From a virus (lineage: Duplodnaviria > Caudoviricetes): a stretch of 56,938 nt of DNA. The position numbers were made by a program, and so were the translations under genes. Below the pieces are notes generated by a model. The model worked only from the letters and a program-made list of their open reading frames with translations. It had not been told where the DNA came from and made no database searches. The stretch's first letter is position 1. Each line of letters opens with the position of its first letter. Location: the IMG/VR virus record IMGVR_UViG_3300011114_000231, positions 1 to 56,938 of that record; one strand, 5' to 3'. This document shows positions 723 to 55,660 of this stretch, one piece after another.

Positions 723-886
723 CACAAGAACTTATCTCACTAGCCAACGATCTGTTGGTTAAGTTGTTACGTAATCTTGATGAGGCTAAGAGTATCAATG
801 CTCCTACAATATATATTGATATGATTCAGTCTCAGATTGATGATGTTGTTGGTATTATATCAAATGGAGAGAATGAAAATGACTAA
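719..886 (+). CDS. Hypothetical protein, 55 aa (not in ORF track)
   Basis: ATGA overlap with the upstream stop, GGAGG RBS at 710-714; MTQELISLAN...ENEND*. Confidence 0.65.
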   Translation: MTQELISLANDLLVKLLRNLDEAKSINAPTIYIDMIQSQIDDVVGIISNGENEND

Positions 887-1061
887 GACAGCATTGAAAC
901 TATACATCTTGAGGGATGTTAGTGGAGCCGTAGTGAAAGACGCTAGTGGTTCCCCACTGTACTTTTCCGACAAGATGGTAGCCAAGGCTAATCGTGCTGT
1001 TGGTCAGCACGTTTCCTATGGTCCTGATCACAAGAAAACAACCAGCAAAAAGGGTAACTAA
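873..1061 (+). CDS. Hypothetical protein
   Basis: GGAG RBS before MKMTKTALK; tightly packed between neighbours. Confidence 0.6.
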   Translation: MKMTKTALKLYILRDVSGAVVKDASGSPLYFSDKMVAKANRAVGQHVSYGPDHKKTTSKKGN

Positions 1062-1062
1062 C

Positions 1063-2055
1063 ATGCGTCCCAACCATATCAAAGATACTATCAAGTCACT
1101 TAACCCACTCCAGATTGCAGTGTGCATTGAGGGTGCTGTTGGTGTTGGTAAATCCAGCATTGTAAAGTCTGTTGCTAAAGACTTGGATGTTCACTGTGTC
1201 CTTAGAAACATGGCAACAATGCTCGTCGAGGACTTCGGTATTCCATCTATCTCTGATGATACTGTTAAGTATAAACTTATTGATTGGTATCCTGCCAAGG
1301 GTTCCAAGTGGGATGACGGTCGTGGTGGTATCCTGTGCTTCGATGATCGTAATCAGGCTGGTACTGATCAGCAGAAACTATTGGCCCATCTTATCCAAGA
1401 ACGTGATCTGCATGGTGTACCTATGGCTGACGGCTGGCAAGTTATCTCCACTGGTAACAGGCAGAGTGATCGTGCTGGTGCTAATCGTGTCTTGTCTCAT
1501 CTCCGTAATCGTGAAGCGTTGATTAACTATGACTTTCACCTTGATGACTGGACTGGTTGGGCATTGGAGAATGGTGTTAACCCTATCGTGGTTAGTTTCC
1601 TGCGTTTCAAACCAGACTTAGCCGCCGCTCATGATCCATCCAAAGATGTTAGCCCGACAATTCGTGGTTGGACTGAGCGTATTAGTCCTGCTGTTGGTGT
1701 TATACCATCAGACTGTGAGTTTGAGTATTTCACTGGTGTTGTTGGCGAGAGTGCCGCCGCTTACTTTACAACATATCTCAAGTTGTATCGTAAACTGCCT
1801 AATGTAGATGCTCTGTTGCTTAACCCGTCTAGTTACGATGTACCAACTGATCTTGGTGTACTCCATGCTATCTCTGGAGCCATTGCTCATCGTGCTACAG
1901 CGTCTAACTTTGATCGTGTTTGCTCTTTTGCAGAGCGTATGCCTCCAGAGTTCAGTGTTCTTACCATCAGCTATGCAACACGTAAGAACCCAGACTTGGC
2001 TAATACCAGTGCCTTCACTAACTGGGCAGTCAAGCACCAAGATGTTTTGTTTTAA
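1063..2055 (+). CDS. MoxR/CbbQ-like AAA+ ATPase
   Basis: Walker A GAVGVGKS, Walker B GILCFDD, STGN sensor 1, LRNR arginine finger, SPTIRGW sensor 2-like; start placed at MRPNH. Confidence 0.88.
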   Translation: MRPNHIKDTIKSLNPLQIAVCIEGAVGVGKSSIVKSVAKDLDVHCVLRNMATMLVEDFGIPSISDDTVKYKLIDWYPAKGSKWDDGRGGILCFDDRNQAGTDQQKLLAHLIQERDLHGVPMADGWQVISTGNRQSDRAGANRVLSHLRNREALINYDFHLDDWTGWALENGVNPIVVSFLRFKPDLAAAHDPSKDVSPTIRGWTERISPAVGVIPSDCEFEYFTGVVGESAAAYFTTYLKLYRKLPNVDALLLNPSSYDVPTDLGVLHAISGAIAHRATASNFDRVCSFAERMPPEFSVLTISYATRKNPDLANTSAFTNWAVKHQDVLF

Positions 2056-2111
2056 GGTCGAAACAGGGGATTTATCCCCTGTCCACTGGTTAGTCCAGTG
2101 CTGATGAGACC
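2056..2111 (+). ncRNA. Hammerhead ribozyme, type II topology
   Basis: GGTC-GAAA-CAGGGGA(TTTA)TCCCCTG-TC^-CACTGG(TTAGT)CCAGTG-CTGATGA-GACC: full catalytic core, three perfect stems, GUC cleavage triplet, predicted cut after 2083. Confidence 0.9.
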
Positions 2112-2138
2112 ATCAGTAACAATAGTGGAGTGAAAGCT

Positions 2139-2990
2139 ATGAACCTATCTGATCGTGCTTTGTTAGTACAACTTAACATCTCTCAGTGGACCGCTCGTAA
2201 GTATGACAAACGAGCCACACAGCAGGTTGCTGATAGCAACAATACAACTATGGCGGCTGGTCGCTATAATAAGTCTCTGTTGCCTATGAATGATTATCTT
2301 GATCGTGTTCACAAGAAAGCTACGGCTATCCGTACTAAGTATTACCAGAACACATTGCCTTGGGGCATTGAGGGTACACAGATGTTACCATCTGCTAATT
2401 ACCTTAGCTTTATGACAGAGTTTCGTAAGGAAAAGGCTGAGTGGGAGCGTTTAGTCCATGACTTTACCGATAACTACGATGACCTATGCCATAATGCTCA
2501 GCGTTTTCTGGGTGATCTGTTTAACCCTGCTGATTATCCAACTCGTTCAGAGATCGAACGTAAGTTCAAGATTGATATGGCTATCTTTCCTGTACCTTCT
2601 GCTGATTTTAGGGTGCAGTTGTCTAACTCAGAACTTGACACCATCCAGAGAGATGTTGAGGCAAGACTTCGTGAAGCTAGTGCTACCGCTATGAAAGATG
2701 TTTGGTCACGTTTGTTTGAACGTGTTCAGCATATGGCTGATAAGTTAGCTGATCCTACAGCTATCTTTCGTGACAGCATGATCGAAAATGCCAGAGAAAT
2801 CTGTGCCATGTTGCCACGTCTTAACTTTGCTGATGATGCTAACTTGGAGAATATGCGTCAGCAAGTTGAGAGTAAGATTGCCAAGTATCATCCTGATGCT
2901 TTGCGTAATGACCCTGACCTTCGTCGTGATACAGCGGCAGAAGCTAAGGCTATCATGGACAAAATGTCCGTATTCATGACTGGTATGTGA
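2139..2990 (+). CDS. DUF3150-like helical protein of the AAA-VWA module
   Basis: LVQLNISQWTARKYD N-terminus and FNPADYP motif; sits between AAA ATPase and VWA genes; GGAG RBS. Confidence 0.7.
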   Translation: MNLSDRALLVQLNISQWTARKYDKRATQQVADSNNTTMAAGRYNKSLLPMNDYLDRVHKKATAIRTKYYQNTLPWGIEGTQMLPSANYLSFMTEFRKEKAEWERLVHDFTDNYDDLCHNAQRFLGDLFNPADYPTRSEIERKFKIDMAIFPVPSADFRVQLSNSELDTIQRDVEARLREASATAMKDVWSRLFERVQHMADKLADPTAIFRDSMIENAREICAMLPRLNFADDANLENMRQQVESKIAKYHPDALRNDPDLRRDTAAEAKAIMDKMSVFMTGM

Positions 2991-3000
2991 GGAGATTACC

Positions 3001-4137
3001 ATGACACAAGAACTTTCACGTCGAGTTTCCAAGGCTAAAACAACCCTGTTGTTAGACCAAAAGAGTGCCTTCATTGGCTCTCTTGCTCTTGGTTTGCCTA
3101 CTGTTATCACAGATAAGGTCAAGACTGCCGCTACTGACGGCAGGGTTATCATGTTTAACCCAGAGTTCTGTGCTGATCTGACTGATGAGGAGATGGTATT
3201 CCTCATTGCTCATGAGACCATGCATCCAATGCTTGAGCATAACTATCGTTTGCAAGGCAGAGACCATGTTAGATGGAACAAAGCCGCTGATTACGTAATC
3301 AACCAGCTACTTGTTGAGGAAAAGATCGGTAAGTTCATTGATGGAGGCTGTCTTAACGACAGCCTCTACAAGTCTGGTAATGGTATTACCGACAACATCT
3401 ATGGCATGTTGCCAGATGAGAGCAATGGCAATGGCTCTGGATCAGGTAATGGCGGTATTGGTGATGATATTATCCCCAGTGAAGCCACTGGTGCTGATCA
3501 AGAGGCAGAGATCGGCGAGTGGAAACTCAAGGTAGCTAATGCGGCTCAAGCCGCTAAACTTATGGGTTCACTTAGTGCCAACATGGAGCGTTTTGTTGGT
3601 GAATTGCTTGAGCCAAAGGTAGATTGGCGTGATGTACTACGTGACTTTGTGTTCAAAGCTAAGACTGATGAGCGTAGTTTTGCACGACCTAACCGTAGGT
3701 TTATCAGCCAAGGTGTCTATCTGCCTTCTGTCACTGGTGAAACACTAGGCGATATTGTCATAGCTATTGATTGCTCTGGTTCTATTGGAGCCAAAGAGAT
3801 TGATATGTTTGCCGCAGAGATGAAGGCAATCAAATCTGACGGAAGTCCTACCGCTATGCACGTGGTCTATTTTGACCATGCTGTCTGTCACTATGACAAG
3901 TTCGGTCCTGATGAGGAACTTGTTGTTAAACCACGTGGTGGTGGCGGTACTGCGTTCAGTCCTGTGTTCAAATACATAGAGGACCATGACATAGAGCCTG
4001 TGGCTTGTGTGTTCCTTACTGATCTGTACTGTGATGATTACGGCCCAGCACCAGAGTATCCTGTACTCTGGGCTGTATTCAATGGCCCAAAAGAACCCGT
4101 TGCACCATTTGGTCGGGTAGTAAAGGCAGTAGCATGA
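3001..4137 (+). CDS. DUF2201-type putative metallopeptidase fused to VWA-like domain
   Basis: TAATDG, HExxH (AHETMH), WNKAADYVIN, MIDAS DCSGS, GGGGT, FLTDL. Confidence 0.88.
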   Translation: MTQELSRRVSKAKTTLLLDQKSAFIGSLALGLPTVITDKVKTAATDGRVIMFNPEFCADLTDEEMVFLIAHETMHPMLEHNYRLQGRDHVRWNKAADYVINQLLVEEKIGKFIDGGCLNDSLYKSGNGITDNIYGMLPDESNGNGSGSGNGGIGDDIIPSEATGADQEAEIGEWKLKVANAAQAAKLMGSLSANMERFVGELLEPKVDWRDVLRDFVFKAKTDERSFARPNRRFISQGVYLPSVTGETLGDIVIAIDCSGSIGAKEIDMFAAEMKAIKSDGSPTAMHVVYFDHAVCHYDKFGPDEELVVKPRGGGGTAFSPVFKYIEDHDIEPVACVFLTDLYCDDYGPAPEYPVLWAVFNGPKEPVAPFGRVVKAVA

Positions 4138-8711: not shown

Positions 8712-10588
8712 TGGATATTGTAACGATTGACTTTGAAACATACTACGACAAGGACTATTCCCTGTCCAAGATGACGACTGAAGCCTATGTAAGAGACCCT
8801 CGCTTCGAGGTTATCGGTGTAGGCATCAAGGTCAATGATCACCCCACTGACTGGTACAGTGGGGATAATGTCGGCAGATTTTTGAAGTCTCTTGACTACA
8901 CCAAGCGGGCTATACTCTGCCACAACACAGCGTTCGATGGTGCTATCCTATCGTGGCACTACGGTATCAAGCCAGCGTTCTGGTTGGACACTCTGTCGAT
9001 GGCTCGACCATTGCACAACATATCTGTAGGTGGTTCGCTCAAGAACCTAGTCGCGTACTACAAGCTGGGCGAGAAGGGCGACGAAGTTATTAACGCTATG
9101 GGTATGCGACGGTCTGACTTCACGACGGAAGGGCTTGCGCGGTACGCATCCTACTGTGTCAACGATGTGGAGTTAACCTACAAGTTGTTCCGTAAGATGG
9201 TTAAGGGGTTTCCATCCAGTGAGTTGCGGCTGATTGACCAGACGTTACGTATGTACACTGAGCCTACGCTTGAGATCGACACGACAGTCTTACACAAACA
9301 TCTTGAGGATATTCTGGAGAACAAGACCACACTAGTGGAGACCCTCGAACTTGGGTGCAGTGAGGATGAAGCTAAGTCTATCCTTATGTCCAACTTTAAG
9401 TTTGCAGATTTTCTACGGGCTATCGGGGTTGAGCCACCGACTAAGCATAGCAAGGCGACAGGTCAGGAGGCATATGCTTTCAGCAAGTCAGACAAAGCGT
9501 TTACTGATCTGTTGGATCACCCCAATATACGTGTTGCCAATGCAGTGGCGGCTAGGCTTGGCGTGAAGTCTACCATTGAAGAGACCCGCACTCGGTCTCT
9601 GTTAGGTGTAGCTGAGCGTGGCACTCTCCCGATCATGCTTAATTACTACGGCGCACACACTGGTCGGTTCAGTGGCGGGGATAAGATGAACCTTCAGAAC
9701 CTACCGAGAGGTGGTTTGCTACGCCGCAGTATAACAGCACCCAACGGTAAAGTTCTTATAGCTTGTGACTCCGCCCAGATCGAAGCCCGTGTTGTTGCGT
9801 GGTTGGCTGGACAAAAGGACTTAATTGCCGCCTTTGCCGAAGGCCGCGATGTCTACTGCGAGTTCGCATCAGAGGTGTATGGTCGCCAGATAACCAAGGC
9901 TGATAAGGTCGAGCGGTTTGTCGGCAAGACTTGTATCTTGGGGCTTGGCTACGGCATGGGTTCGCTCAAGTTCGAAAACACTCTAGCCATAGGGCAAGCT
10001 GGTATCAGCGTTAAGATGGACTCAGATGAGGCTAAGAACGCAGTCAATCTATACAGAACAAAATACCACAAGGTCGCTAGACTTTGGTCCAGATGCAGTG
10101 TCGCGTTGGGTAACATGATTAATGGTCAGGAGTTCTGGTTGAACGATGACATACCTATCATCAAGACGGGCAAGGACTGCATAATTCTCCCCAATAAGTT
10201 GGCAGTTCGTTACCCTCTACTAACCAGGGGTGAGAACTACTCATACGCAGGTGACATAAGAGTGTACAAAGACGCAATTAAAGACCGCGTTATGGGCAAA
10301 CCAATAAACACAGACAAGTTTACACATATTTACGGTGGCAAGGTGACAGAAAATGTCGTGCAAGCTATCGCTAGGATTGTCGTGTCCGAACAGATGACCA
10401 AGATAGGCCATAGATATAAGGTTGTGTTGCAAGTACACGACGAGGTGGTCGTTCTTGTGGATGAGCATGAAGCTGAGAGAGCCAAGGCATACATGATTGA
10501 GGTCATGTCAACGCCGCCATCATGGGCGTTGGATTTGCCAGTGGCTTGCGAAGCTACCATTGGTAACAACTATGCGGAGTGTAAGTGA
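8708..10588 (+). CDS. polA: DNA polymerase family A with 3'-5' exonuclease
   Basis: Exo I DFET, Exo II HNTAFD, Exo III YCVND, TGRFS, motif A CDSAQIEAR, motif B KTCILGLGYG, motif C VHDE. Confidence 0.96.
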   Translation: MMDIVTIDFETYYDKDYSLSKMTTEAYVRDPRFEVIGVGIKVNDHPTDWYSGDNVGRFLKSLDYTKRAILCHNTAFDGAILSWHYGIKPAFWLDTLSMARPLHNISVGGSLKNLVAYYKLGEKGDEVINAMGMRRSDFTTEGLARYASYCVNDVELTYKLFRKMVKGFPSSELRLIDQTLRMYTEPTLEIDTTVLHKHLEDILENKTTLVETLELGCSEDEAKSILMSNFKFADFLRAIGVEPPTKHSKATGQEAYAFSKSDKAFTDLLDHPNIRVANAVAARLGVKSTIEETRTRSLLGVAERGTLPIMLNYYGAHTGRFSGGDKMNLQNLPRGGLLRRSITAPNGKVLIACDSAQIEARVVAWLAGQKDLIAAFAEGRDVYCEFASEVYGRQITKADKVERFVGKTCILGLGYGMGSLKFENTLAIGQAGISVKMDSDEAKNAVNLYRTKYHKVARLWSRCSVALGNMINGQEFWLNDDIPIIKTGKDCIILPNKLAVRYPLLTRGENYSYAGDIRVYKDAIKDRVMGKPINTDKFTHIYGGKVTENVVQAIARIVVSEQMTKIGHRYKVVLQVHDEVVVLVDEHEAERAKAYMIEVMSTPPSWALDLPVACEATIGNNYAECK

Positions 10589-10674
10589 TGGATAGGGATG
10601 ACAAGATCGCGTGGATCAAGATCATTATCGTATATATCTTAATAACAATCTTAGCTATATGGGTGAGCCTATGA
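10588..10674 (+). CDS. Small membrane peptide, 28 aa (not in ORF track)
   Basis: MDRDDKIAWIKIIIVYILITILAIWVSL*; overlaps polA stop (TGATG) and gcrA start (ATGA). Confidence 0.5.
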   Translation: MDRDDKIAWIKIIIVYILITILAIWVSL

Positions 10675-11177
10675 ACGTAGAGAAACTTATTGAGATGTGG
10701 AGAGCAGGTGCTAGCGGCGCTGTTATTGCGGCAAGCCTTGGCGTAACTAGAAGCGCAGTGCTTGGTAAAGTATATAGGCTACGGGAGCAGGGCATACTTG
10801 CTTATAGAAATGCTGAGAAGTCCAAGGTCAAGGTTAAAGAGATCAAAGAACCCAAGGAAGATACCACAAATGTGGTTAGACTGGAACGTAAAGTCCCCCA
10901 TACAACACAGGGAGGGAGCATGTTACGCATACGCCCAGAAGAACCAGAGCAAAAGCCAGTGGTTCCACCACCAATTCCCCAGTATGACCCAGACAAACCA
11001 TACCTAAACATACTGCAACTTAACTTTAATAAGTGTCGGTATATTATGACGGATGATACGTCGGTCAACGCATTTTATTGTGGCGAAACGGTACACCGTA
11101 GGTCATACTGCAAGGCTCACGCAGATATATGTTTAGTGCCAGCACCGAAAAAAGTTAGGGACACAAATGCAGCTTAG
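10671..11177 (+). CDS. gcrA: GcrA-like cell-cycle transcriptional regulator
   Basis: N-terminal LW..G.S...IA..LGVTRSAVLGKVYRL HTH; C-terminal LxxLxxxxCRY...FYCG...YCxxH. Confidence 0.88.
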   Translation: MNVEKLIEMWRAGASGAVIAASLGVTRSAVLGKVYRLREQGILAYRNAEKSKVKVKEIKEPKEDTTNVVRLERKVPHTTQGGSMLRIRPEEPEQKPVVPPPIPQYDPDKPYLNILQLNFNKCRYIMTDDTSVNAFYCGETVHRRSYCKAHADICLVPAPKKVRDTNAA

Positions 11178-11826
11178 CCATTCCTTCTCATCTATCAAGT
11201 TGTACGAAAACTGCCCACTCAGGTACTACCATCAGCGCGTTACCAAGAGCGTGGTAGATAAGGGCGGGGAAGCAAGCCAGTATGGGGAACGCATCCATAA
11301 ATTTCTTGAGGAAAGATTGCTCGGAGGAGAGTTGTCCTCAGAGATCGCACACCTTGAGCCGACAGTGGAAGCTATCCTAAAACTTACTGGAAGCGGTGCG
11401 CTTGAGGTTGAGAAGGAACTAACTCTCAATAAGGAACTTACACCCACAGGGTGGTGGGATAAGGACGCATGGATGAGGTCCAAGCTGGACGTGCTGATCC
11501 TGCACAAGAACTCTGCCATAGTTATGGATTGGAAAACAGGCAAGCGTAGACCAGACTTCTCCCAGTTAGAACTGTTTGCTTTGCAGGTGTTCTCCCACTA
11601 CCCTGAGATCGAAACTGTACGCACAAGTTTTGTTTGGATACAGGATAAGGCTATGGACAAAGACACTTACAAGCGGTCTCATGCCCCTGATATGTGGCGT
11701 AAATTGATGAGCCGTATCAATAGGATAGAGCAATCTTTAGAGAAAGATGTATGGCCAGCTAGGCCAAGTGGCTTGTGTAAATTTTGCCCTTGCAAAAACT
11801 TTTGTGATTTTGCACCTAATACTTGA
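11167..11826 (+). CDS. PD-(D/E)XK Cas4/RecB-like exonuclease
   Basis: N-terminal CP, KLD...DWKTG, QLELF, C-terminal CKFCPCKNFC Fe-S-type cysteines. Confidence 0.88.
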   Translation: MQLSHSFSSIKLYENCPLRYYHQRVTKSVVDKGGEASQYGERIHKFLEERLLGGELSSEIAHLEPTVEAILKLTGSGALEVEKELTLNKELTPTGWWDKDAWMRSKLDVLILHKNSAIVMDWKTGKRRPDFSQLELFALQVFSHYPEIETVRTSFVWIQDKAMDKDTYKRSHAPDMWRKLMSRINRIEQSLEKDVWPARPSGLCKFCPCKNFCDFAPNT

Positions 11827-11852
11827 CACTGATGTAAAGTAGGGGTATATAG

Positions 11853-12197
11853 ATGGCTACACCAGAGGCTAAGGTCAAAGCCAAGATTGATAAGATGTTA
11901 TCCCAGTTCAAAGGTCTGTGGTTCTATAGTCCACAGTCAGGTGTTTATGGGGTAGCGGGGATACCTGATCGTATTGCCTGTGTGGACGGGCATTTCGTAG
12001 GGATAGAAGCCAAAGCAGACAGAACAAAGAAGCCTACCGCCTTGCAACGGCAGTGTATGGCTAAGATAGAAGCGGCAGGGGGCAAGTGCTTCGTCGTGTA
12101 TGATGACGAGACACTAGAGATAGCCAGAGAATACATTTCGGGAGTGCTAAATGTTAGTTATAGAACAAGCCAAGGCTCTAGCCCTAAAGTTGAATAG
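11853..12197 (+). CDS. VRR-NUC domain nuclease (putative resolvase)
   Basis: PE..VK, GIPD, IEAK, PTALQ motifs. Confidence 0.88.
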   Translation: MATPEAKVKAKIDKMLSQFKGLWFYSPQSGVYGVAGIPDRIACVDGHFVGIEAKADRTKKPTALQRQCMAKIEAAGGKCFVVYDDETLEIAREYISGVLNVSYRTSQGSSPKVE

Positions 12198-13713
12198 CCC
12201 TGCACGGGTTCTGGATACTATCCGTGACTCCAAGATGGTCACGCTTCGCGGACAACAAGTTGTTGTAACACCCCATGACATTGATAGTGTGATTGCGCTT
12301 AACGATCTCGGTATCAGTGCGCCTTCTCCTATCCTGCATTACTATGACTGGCCCAGTCAGTTCAAACCATACGACCATCAGCGCAAGACAGCCGCCTTTC
12401 TAACAACCCACAAGAAGTGTCTGGTTCTTAATGAGATCGGCACTGGCAAGACGCAGAGTGCGTTATGGGCGGCTGACTATCTGATGAGTGAGGGCATCGT
12501 TAACAAAGTGCTTATCATCTCTCCGCTCTCTACACTGGAGCGGGTGTGGGGTGACGCTATTTTCAAGGGGTTCTACGAGCGCAGAGCCATTGTCCTGCGT
12601 GGTACGGCTGAGCGTAGGAAGCGGCTGATCCAGAAGGATGCTGACTTCTATATCGTAAACCATGATGGGTTCTCTATCATTGCTACTGAAGCTATCAATA
12701 TGTTTGATCTTGTTATCGTTGATGAGGCGGCTGTGCTTCGCAATGGGCAGACGCAAAGGTTCAAACAGTTCTACAAATGGATGGAGAAGAATCCACAAGC
12801 TAGGCTTTGGTTGATGACAGGTACACCCACTCCCAATGCACCAACAGATGCGTGGGCGTTGGCTAAGCTAGTTGAAAGTCCGTATATCACTGAGCGTTGG
12901 ACTGCGTTCAGAGACCAGACCATGTACAAATACAAGATGCACACGTGGATTGCGCGTCAGGATAGTGTTGACATAGTGCAACACGTTCTCCAGCCAGCTA
13001 TCAGATATACGAGAGATGATTGTTTCGACCTACCTGATACCGTTGTGCAGACACGTAGCGTTGATCTTACACCAGAGCAAGTCAAACACTTCAACGCCAT
13101 GATGAAACATCTTGTGGTGGAGATGAAGAAGTCAGGTGATGAGTCAACCATCAGTGCGGTTAATGAAGCAGTCAAACTCCAGAAGCTGGTGCAGATTGCA
13201 TGTGGTGTGGCATACGACGACAATGGAAACGATGTGGAGGTTGACTGTTCCCCTCGTGTTAATGCTGTCAAAGAGATCATAGACCTCTGTGACGAGAAGA
13301 TTATTATCTTTGTGCCTCTGACAGGAACTCTACATATGTTGGAGCGTGAGTTATCGAAGCACTGGACAGTCGGTGTGGTCAATGGCGCGGTCTCATCTAC
13401 CAAGCGAGATGTGATTTTTGATAACTTCCAGAACCACAAAGACCCGCGTATTCTCATCGCTCATCCAGCTACGATGGCGCATGGGTTAACGCTGACATCT
13501 GCCAGCACAATCATATGGTACGGCCCGATAAACAGTAACGAGCAATACACACAGGCCAATGGTCGCATTGAGCGTATTGGTAAGCGTCACATATCGAACG
13601 TGATCCATATAGAGTCTACAACAGTCGAGCATAAAATGTATGAGCGGCTGTCTAACAAACAGAAACTACAGGGACTTCTATTAGATTTGATAAAGGAGCA
13701 AACATATGACTGA
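12151..13713 (+). CDS. SNF2-family helicase
   Basis: PYDHQ, GTGKT, DEAA, TGTP, HGLTL, QANGRIERIG. Confidence 0.92.
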   Translation: MLVIEQAKALALKLNSPARVLDTIRDSKMVTLRGQQVVVTPHDIDSVIALNDLGISAPSPILHYYDWPSQFKPYDHQRKTAAFLTTHKKCLVLNEIGTGKTQSALWAADYLMSEGIVNKVLIISPLSTLERVWGDAIFKGFYERRAIVLRGTAERRKRLIQKDADFYIVNHDGFSIIATEAINMFDLVIVDEAAVLRNGQTQRFKQFYKWMEKNPQARLWLMTGTPTPNAPTDAWALAKLVESPYITERWTAFRDQTMYKYKMHTWIARQDSVDIVQHVLQPAIRYTRDDCFDLPDTVVQTRSVDLTPEQVKHFNAMMKHLVVEMKKSGDESTISAVNEAVKLQKLVQIACGVAYDDNGNDVEVDCSPRVNAVKEIIDLCDEKIIIFVPLTGTLHMLERELSKHWTVGVVNGAVSSTKRDVIFDNFQNHKDPRILIAHPATMAHGLTLTSASTIIWYGPINSNEQYTQANGRIERIGKRHISNVIHIESTTVEHKMYERLSNKQKLQGLLLDLIKEQTYD

Positions 13714-55477: not shown

Positions 55478-55660
55478 GTAAAGTAAAACTTGACACGTGC
55501 TTTTTTGGGGTTGTGGTTTAAGAGGTATACTACGCGACCGGGGGCCGCGGCTGAGCGCTGTCCATGTGGCCCCCCGTCATGCTTGCGCGCAACAAAACAA
55601 AAGAACAAAACAAGAACTAGGATTAAATAAAATAAAGGGAATTTAATTAATTTGGGACAG

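Follow-up and report, generated by a model that had tools for sequence, protein, structure and literature searches.

The window analysed here is the whole stretch of 56,938 bp of record IMGVR_UViG_3300011114_000231, a complete virus genome with direct terminal repeats. In this genome, a gene coding for an AAA_5 (MoxR/dynein-type) ATPase is followed by the gene of a DUF3150-like protein and, next to it, by a DUF2201 metallopeptidase/VWA gene (Table 1). The feature under study, a predicted hammerhead ribozyme, is located between the first two of them, and on its downstream side AUCAGUAACAAUAGU fills the interval between GACC and GGAG. The ATPase gene was listed with a GTG start. Its relatives, when aligned, begin only at residues 13-25 of the listed protein, and a small ORF (837-1061, plus strand) overlaps this start. 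Homologues of the small ORF (34-43% identity, 35-62 aa) are found directly 3' of an upstream hammerhead in the related loci L008, L011 and L014. Given the overlapping ORF and its homologues, the true start of the ATPase gene is probably later than 994.

For the downstream protein, the nearest cultured relatives were cyanophage genes (31% identity), and 258 relatives were found in viral contigs. A DNA search of cultured phages with positions 1000-3000 of the window, in distant mode, gave no match.

Table 1. Features at and around the junction of the ATPase and DUF3150-like genes (window coordinates)
Feature	Position	Strand	Basis and remarks
Upstream gene, AAA_5 (MoxR/dynein-type) ATPase, 353 aa as listed	994..2055	+	ORF list; Pfam PF07728, E 6.6e-05
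TAA stop of the ATPase gene	2053..2055	+	Read from sequence; last A (2055) immediately 5' of stem II
Stem II 5' strand GGUC, positions 11.4-11.1	2056..2059	+	Sequence; 4/4 pairs held in 13/13 distinct copies; 3/4 pairs compensatory
Core G12 A13 A14	2060..2062	+	Invariant in alignment A2
Stem III hairpin, A15.1-U16.1 plus CAGGGGA/UCCCCUG, loop UUUA (in DNA: CAGGGGA 2064-2070, TTTA 2071-2074, TCCCCTG 2075-2081)	2063..2082	+	Sequence and fold; predicted 3' end of upstream product
C17 (2083), predicted scissile bond 2083/2084	2083..2084	+	Hammerhead numbering rule
Stem I hairpin, 6 bp and 5-nt loop UUAGU (in DNA: CACTGG 2084-2089, TTAGT 2090-2094, CCAGTG 2095-2100)	2084..2100	+	Sequence; 5/6 pairs compensatory; predicted 5' end of downstream product
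Core C3 U4 G5 A6 U7 G8 A9 (CUGAUGA)	2101..2107	+	Invariant in alignment A2
Stem II 3' strand GACC, positions 10.1-10.4	2108..2111	+	Sequence and covariation
Tail AUCAG	2112..2116	+	With C2111, exact complement of core CUGAUG 2101-2106
Shine-Dalgarno GGAG, 8 nt 5' of ATG	2127..2130	+	Read from sequence
Downstream gene, DUF3150-like protein, 283 aa	2139..2990	+	Best tblastn evidence is a cyanophage gene labelled DUF3150 domain protein (31% identity, 99% of query covered)
DUF2201 metallopeptidase/VWA gene	3001-4137		Next after DUF3150-like gene

The hammerhead motif at 2056-2111

The sequence-only reading had proposed a type II hammerhead between the stop codon of the AAA_5 ATPase gene and the ribosome-binding site of the next gene, and each of the elements that it described within 2056-2111 was found there base for base. 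The core is complete, with CUGAUGA, GAA and C17 at 2083 (GAAA occupies 2060-2063 and TC 2082-2083), and the conserved pairs are present, G10.1-C11.1 as G2108-C2059 and A15.1-U16.1 as A2063-U2082. Three helices are arranged around this core, stem II with 4 bp, stem III with 8 bp and stem I with 6 bp. Loops cap stems I and III and stem II is open, with its strands at the ends of the motif, which is the type II topology. Hammerheads are cut 3' of position 17, and the ATG at 2139 is 55 nt past 2084, the first base after the predicted cut. When the 56-nt element was folded alone, the minimum-energy structure was exactly the hammerhead (-24.5 kcal/mol). All the sequence and structure features that define the type II hammerhead are found in the element, and self-cleavage is predicted. 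We consider that 2056-2111 is very probably a type II hammerhead.

The core-only pattern was matched once in the window, where 0.01 matches were expected (among 100 shuffles, 1 had a match). A lenient descriptor, with stems of at least 3, 4 and 2 bp, gave one match on the plus strand and none on the minus strand, and 11 of 300 dinucleotide shuffles had at least one match. With a strict descriptor, in which the stems were those observed (at least 6, 6 and 4 bp), none of 1000 dinucleotide shuffles of the window matched. No second hammerhead was found in the window at E<=1 with the covariance model described below. The search for other ribozyme families in the window produced a single match, to the CPEB3 model (55521-55585, minus strand, E 0.33, with 21.5 bits where the cut-off is 35), which is most likely due to chance.

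The Rfam Hammerhead_II model (RF02276), suggested before as a check, gave a divided answer. It matched 2056-2122 with an E-value of 0.0016 in a scan of 301 nt, but the score was 26.7 bits and the cut-off is 37. The element was left uncalled by the Rfam scan at the gathering score, and it was absent from the matches of the whole-window Rfam scan by E-value. Since the same loose RF02276 search finds sub-cut-off matches in 11 of 14 control genomes, this score taken alone is weak evidence. The low value is explained by the model, that expects a stem II of 2 bp and a tail pseudoknot and takes part of the stem II found here as an insertion. Actually, of the approximately 30 hammerheads present in 14 loci, related or of the subclass, the RF02276 gathering score allowed no call. 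The missing of the cut-off reflects the seed alignment of the model and no failure of a class-defining feature. Routine annotation therefore misses the element, and the roughly 30 uncalled copies indicate that phage annotation under-counts such ribozymes. Two of the hammerhead-bearing contigs also had Rfam tmRNA matches above the gathering score, of 66-72 nt, one in L144 (8246-8317, plus strand, 59.4 bits) and one in L115 (6081-6146, minus strand, 53.6 bits). These are probably tRNA-like genes.

Covariation and a compact subclass in phage contigs

We sampled 17 loci with relatives of the ATPase and the best 80 of the 258 loci with relatives of the downstream protein. A MAFFT alignment of all 11 copies (A1) misaligned stems of unequal length and was left out of the counts. 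In the alignment of the 8 compact copies 98.5% of the cells were paired (32-47% in slid controls) and 10 of 18 pairs were compensatory. The alignment of 13 distinct copies to the covariance model gave 99.5% of paired cells (31-47% in slid controls), percentages that are partly built in because the copies were chosen by a descriptor or a model demanding stems. The closing pairs were CG in 13/13 and AU in 13/13 of these distinct copies. Covariation of the stems in homologous loci, the lack of which had been named as an argument against a ribozyme, was thus found, with 10 of 16 pairs compensatory among the 13 copies selected in this stem-requiring way.

The covariance model was trained on the 8 compact copies and run on the window plus 95 loci, 564,039 bases, on both strands. 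There were 18 matches at E<=1, one of them in the window, and 18/18 were on the gene strand. Ten of the 18, corresponding to 5 distinct sequences, belong to a group with a long stem I that was absent from the training and scored 38-43 bits. Similarly, the descriptor had 0 minus-strand matches in 423,467 bases. The independent support is provided by the strand bias, by the untrained long-stem-I group and by the homologous junction of L001 and L002. These are the two closest contigs, with 96-98% protein identity, and they carry a hammerhead at the same junction. In L001 stem III has been preserved through changes on both strands, and in L002 two bases of loop I have changed. In more distant relatives, type II hammerheads are found at other places of the same gene module. 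L095 has them on both sides of the ATPase gene, one just before the gene and the other at 5 nt from its stop. Those of L011 and L014 bracket a block in which the ATPase gene has a small ORF on either side, and one of them is directly before a DUF3150 homologue (41% identity to the gene of the window). In L008, L009 and L016 a hammerhead is found 5' of the small ORF that comes ahead of the ATPase gene.

An exact-pattern scan of viral contigs for hammerheads with stem II GGUC/GACC returned at least 119 stretches, and in the matches listed these loci hold 140 copies, 126 of them unique. As judged from their sequences, they make up a compact subclass with a 4-bp open stem II GGUC/GACC, a stem-loop I of 17 nt and no loop-tail pseudoknot. 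Stem-loop I had 17 nt in 119 of the 126 unique copies listed. In these 119 listed copies, loop position 1 was U in 117, position 3 was A in 83 and position 5 was G in 92. The base 5' of GGUC was A in 125/126 and the base 3' of GACC was A in 102/126 of the unique copies listed. The equivalents in the window are A2055, A2112 and U2090. These near-invariant flanking A's, together with the U of loop I, suggest a non-Watson-Crick contact of stem I with stem II replacing the usual type II pseudoknot. A conserved reverse Hoogsteen pair described in type I and III hammerheads (PMC6155905) would be the obvious analogue.

The placement was also stereotyped. For 110 unique copies listed there was enough flank to determine it, and in 100 of them a Shine-Dalgarno-like motif and the start of an ORF of at least 40 codons were present in the 150 nt past stem II, the median distance being 19.5 nt. 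The upstream ORF (at least 50 codons) ended at a median of 2 nt before stem II in the 110 usable copies listed, and in 76 of these 110 the stop was within -1 to +3 nt of it. Specifically, the gap was -1 in 24 copies (where the TAG shares the first G of stem II), 0 in 14, 1 in 9, 2 in 22 and 3 in 7; in the window it is 0. In all the multi-copy loci listed (19/19) the copies were on a single strand. An extreme case is L162, an IMG/VR contig (13,998 nt covered), in which eight compact type II hammerheads are found within 3.6 kb (9152-12752, minus strand), about one per small gene, so that there is a ribozyme beside every cistron.

The tail, the junction in relatives and the role of the ribozyme

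The sequence-only reading had also raised the possibility that UAAC (2117-2120) pairs with GUUA at loop I. This pairing was abandoned, since L002 keeps the tail but has TGAGA as the loop, so that the pairing is lost and no second change restores it. No complement of loop I adjoins stem II in the window that could form a pseudoknot of at least 4 bp with the bases 3' of this stem. In the compact subclass no loop-tail Watson-Crick complementarity was found, and in the long-stem-I relatives a loop-tail complement (UGGUU/AACCA) is present. Two other pairings were dropped. One was between UAGU of loop I and GCUA (2135-2138, just 5' of the ATG), also broken in L002, and the other was an extension of stem II by the tail, ruled out by the lack of complementarity in the upstream flank.

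The tail AUCAG with C2111 can form, against the core CUGAUG, a competing hairpin of 6 bp with the loop AGAC, and this is the one that the longer RNA adopts in its minimum-energy fold. Predicted energies, for secondary structure alone and with tertiary contacts left out, were -27.7 to -28.6 kcal/mol for the anti-core hairpin state against -26.2 for the active fold. Once the tail is included the hairpin is thus predicted to be 1.5-2.4 kcal/mol stabler, and much of the RNA may be in an inactive form. Among the matches listed, 20 of the 126 unique copies had the AUCAG tail, and their stems I and III were unrelated; a 6-bp arm appeared in 13 of 2520 shuffled tails. Besides, loop I position 5 was U in 12 of 18 listed copies with AUCAG versus G in 87 of the 101 others. 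For the 3' product, two adjoining hairpins are predicted. The tail recurs and is probably under selection, and it could be an off-state, a post-cleavage lock or an unrecognised tertiary contact.

Conservation at the same junction in related phages, another of the checks proposed, was verified in a few cases only. The hammerhead was found in 3 of the 77 relatives with a readable junction and was absent in 74, indicating that the element is dispensable at this place. In 32 of the 77 the spacer had 30 nt or less, in 11 it was longer than 150 nt, in 1 it was weakly structured, and in 30 there was a stable structure without a T-run, typically a GC hairpin of 7 bp. Taken together, the 30 structured spacers and the 3 hammerheads indicate that the junction is a recurrent site for an RNA element by which an mRNA end could be defined or protected, the hammerhead being one solution among several.

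Some of the spacers deserve a description. In L031 (2373-2500) a spacer of about 128 nt at the same junction makes a long branched hairpin (-45 kcal/mol, z -4.0) without a T-run, and similar spacers, an unclassified structured RNA, occur in L062, L039, L054 and L055. The long structured spacers of L031, L066, L072, L053, L029, L021 and L098 had no Rfam match at E<=0.5. The one in L066 (2367-2480) has a branched structure closed by 9 bp and then CUUUUUUCUUU, resembling an intrinsic terminator; in this contig the ATPase gene may end a transcription unit. In L001, 23 extra nucleotides (4063-4085) with a small hairpin (UCGCCA-UU-GGCGA) separate the ATPase stop from the hammerhead. This insert indicates that the abutting of the stop codon is unfixed even among near-identical phages.

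The best-supported reading, which we hold as reasonably probable, is that the hammerhead processes a polycistronic ATPase/DUF3150-like mRNA and leaves a hairpin on each new RNA end. One RNA would carry the AAA_5 ATPase gene and continue into the DUF3150-like gene, a co-transcription suggested by the tight packing on the same strand, a single promoter-like site at 266-294 and no convincing terminator in consensus scans. This RNA would cut itself between C2083 and C2084. Hammerhead cleavage 3' of C17 generates a 2',3'-cyclic phosphate and a 5'-OH. The ATPase mRNA would retain its stop codon and end in the stem III hairpin plus UC with the 2',3'-cyclic phosphate, and the downstream mRNA would open with the stem I hairpin, having the 5'-OH on its first base, 55 nt 5' of the ATG, and, in the predicted fold, the Shine-Dalgarno free. 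As stem II is the open stem, each product would keep a closed hairpin at its new end. The adjacent cistrons would in this way be uncoupled in stability and translation, as with RiboJ. The class-wide layout of stop, hammerhead, ribosome-binding site and start fits a cleavage that splits the polycistron.

There is prior evidence of such activity in related elements. Of the consensus hammerheads tested by Perreault et al., 14 of 18 were active, and prophage hammerheads flank genes and cleave within polycistronic transcripts of about 2 kb in vitro (PMC3088659). The conversion of long transcripts into gene-length mRNAs has been suggested as the role of phage hammerheads (PMC3088659, PMC6765202). 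In the case of RiboJ, downstream protein went up 2- to 10-fold and the transcript about 2-fold (PMC6206723). The pseudoknot between loop I and the tail is common to most type II hammerheads, and its removal slowed one tested case more than 100-fold (PMC3088659). As it is absent here, and costly to remove in that case, the rate at physiological Mg2+ is uncertain.

A different view, to which we give a rather low probability, is that of a gated, bistable ribozyme. AUCAG plus C2111 would block CUGAUG, and a terminating ribosome would unfold stem II and cover the flanking A, making cleavage dependent on translation or kinetics; or the hairpin would arise only once the RNA is cut, so that the 3' product is locked and cannot be re-ligated. 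The choice of the alternative hairpin by the minimum-energy fold agrees with this, as does the recurrence of AUCAG over unrelated stems, well above the shuffled tails, in copies that carry a distinct loop I signature, and also the 3' product predicted as two adjoining hairpins. However, the core-tail pairing lies beyond a covariation check because the core is invariant, the energy gap is small and was computed without the tertiary stabilisation of the active fold, and AUCAG might serve for a tertiary contact with loop I, as yet unrecognised, instead. The covering of stem II by the ribosome that terminates on the ATPase stop had already been put forward in the sequence-only reading. The spacing of the subclass, with its stops so close to stem II and the A 5' of it nearly invariant in the copies listed, fits the proposal as geometry only, and the gaps of 23 nt in L001 and 3 nt in L002 do not. 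Such tight spacing may also merely reflect the compaction of phage genomes. We are similarly doubtful about the generalization of this idea, according to which the compact pseudoknot-free type II hammerheads are a distinct intercistronic cassette, missed by the Rfam cut-off and with gated activity. In it, the conserved 5' A would often be the last base of the stop codon, with the terminating ribosome switching the ribozyme off, and the AUCAG of about one in six copies, that of the window included, would be a two-state switch or a post-cleavage lock. Type II would be the favoured permutation, being the only one with a closed hairpin at each of the two new ends.

It is improbable, in our opinion, that the element is a spreading cassette without a role in the expression of these two genes, gained and lost sporadically, for example where the conserved core and stem II blocks of 9-11 nt recombine, and tolerated, perhaps inactive, here. 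The presence at this junction in only 3 of 77 relatives would be expected from it, and so would the different hammerhead junctions among relatives, the up to 8 copies on one contig (L162, in the matches listed) and the near-identical stem II and core blocks common to otherwise unrelated phage contigs. Nevertheless, the strict orientation with the gene strand (in all the model matches, in the descriptor search and in the multi-copy loci listed), the stereotyped placement between stop and ribosome-binding site and the stems kept through compensatory change indicate selection on the RNA. Finally, a chance resemblance, or two ordinary hairpins (of a terminator, an attenuator or a nuclease site) flanked by accident by the bases of a hammerhead core, is already disfavoured and very improbable, for in spite of the Rfam score under the cut-off, the loose matches in control genomes and the plain hairpins at the same junction in relatives, no strict match was obtained in 1000 shuffles, 11/11 conserved core positions are present (CUGA-GA, GAA, U16.1 and C17; N7 and A15.1 uncounted), the core bases are invariant across the aligned copies and no T-run follows either hairpin.

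Comparison with known systems

Hammerheads of type II have been on record from the intergenic regions of phages, where they often flank genes, since 2011 (PMC3088659). The element of the window has the same core, three-helix junction and permutation as those described there (RF02276; Perreault et al. 2011), in the same phage or prophage intergenic habitat, where several copies often flank genes. In contrast to most of them, it is devoid of the Watson-Crick pseudoknot between loop I and the 3' tail and scores 26.7 bits against 37. It differs also in the 4-bp stem II, the fixed 17-nt stem-loop I, the loop U, the flanking A's and the AUCAG anti-core tail. The triple around ardA in Agrobacterium tumefaciens (PMC3088659) is a case of ribozymes bracketing genes or blocks in polycistrons, as they do in L095, L011 and L014, whereas the window has one copy and the flanked genes are the AAA_5 ATPase and the DUF3150-like ones. 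The stop next to stem II, the constant spacing of the ribosome-binding site, the A's on both flanks and the anti-core tail were not found in the main text of PMC3088659, in which 'Shine' and 'ribosome binding' have 0 occurrences. The supplements may cover them, and the pseudoknot-free subclass may already be included in Dataset S1 and Figures S4-S5 of Perreault et al.

The biological role of prokaryotic and phage hammerheads has been described as an open question (PMC6155905, PMC6765202), and our literature search found nothing that settles their function in phages. A single copy adds little alone. Its subclass, however, offers a clean and testable architecture, in which the stop abuts stem II, the ribosome-binding site comes about 20 nt past the ribozyme, each predicted product end has a hairpin and some copies have anti-core tails.

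In bacterial operons, intercistronic stem-loops define or protect mRNA ends. The stable T-run-free structures in 30 of the 77 relatives at this junction are similar to them, and stem III would serve in the same way after cleavage. Unlike these stem-loops, the hammerhead would make the ends itself, without a host nuclease. Plain hairpins can actually replace the hammerhead at the same junction in relatives.

RiboJ is the sTRSV hammerhead with an added hairpin. It is a self-cleaving ribozyme directly 5' of the ribosome-binding site that removes the upstream RNA and leaves a structured 5'-OH leader (PMC6206723), of which only the layout is seen here. Unlike the element of the window, RiboJ is engineered, belongs to another hammerhead type and is placed after a promoter, so the likeness is one of functional analogy and not of family membership. 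RNA viruses of fungi and plants also have, in their 5' UTRs, a ribozyme just 5' of an ORF; these hammerheads are needed for translation initiation, and cleavage affects translation (PMC13725137). Those are type I hammerheads in eukaryotic hosts, acting in cap-independent translation with no Shine-Dalgarno context (PMC13725137), while the one described here is a type II motif placed in front of a Shine-Dalgarno sequence.
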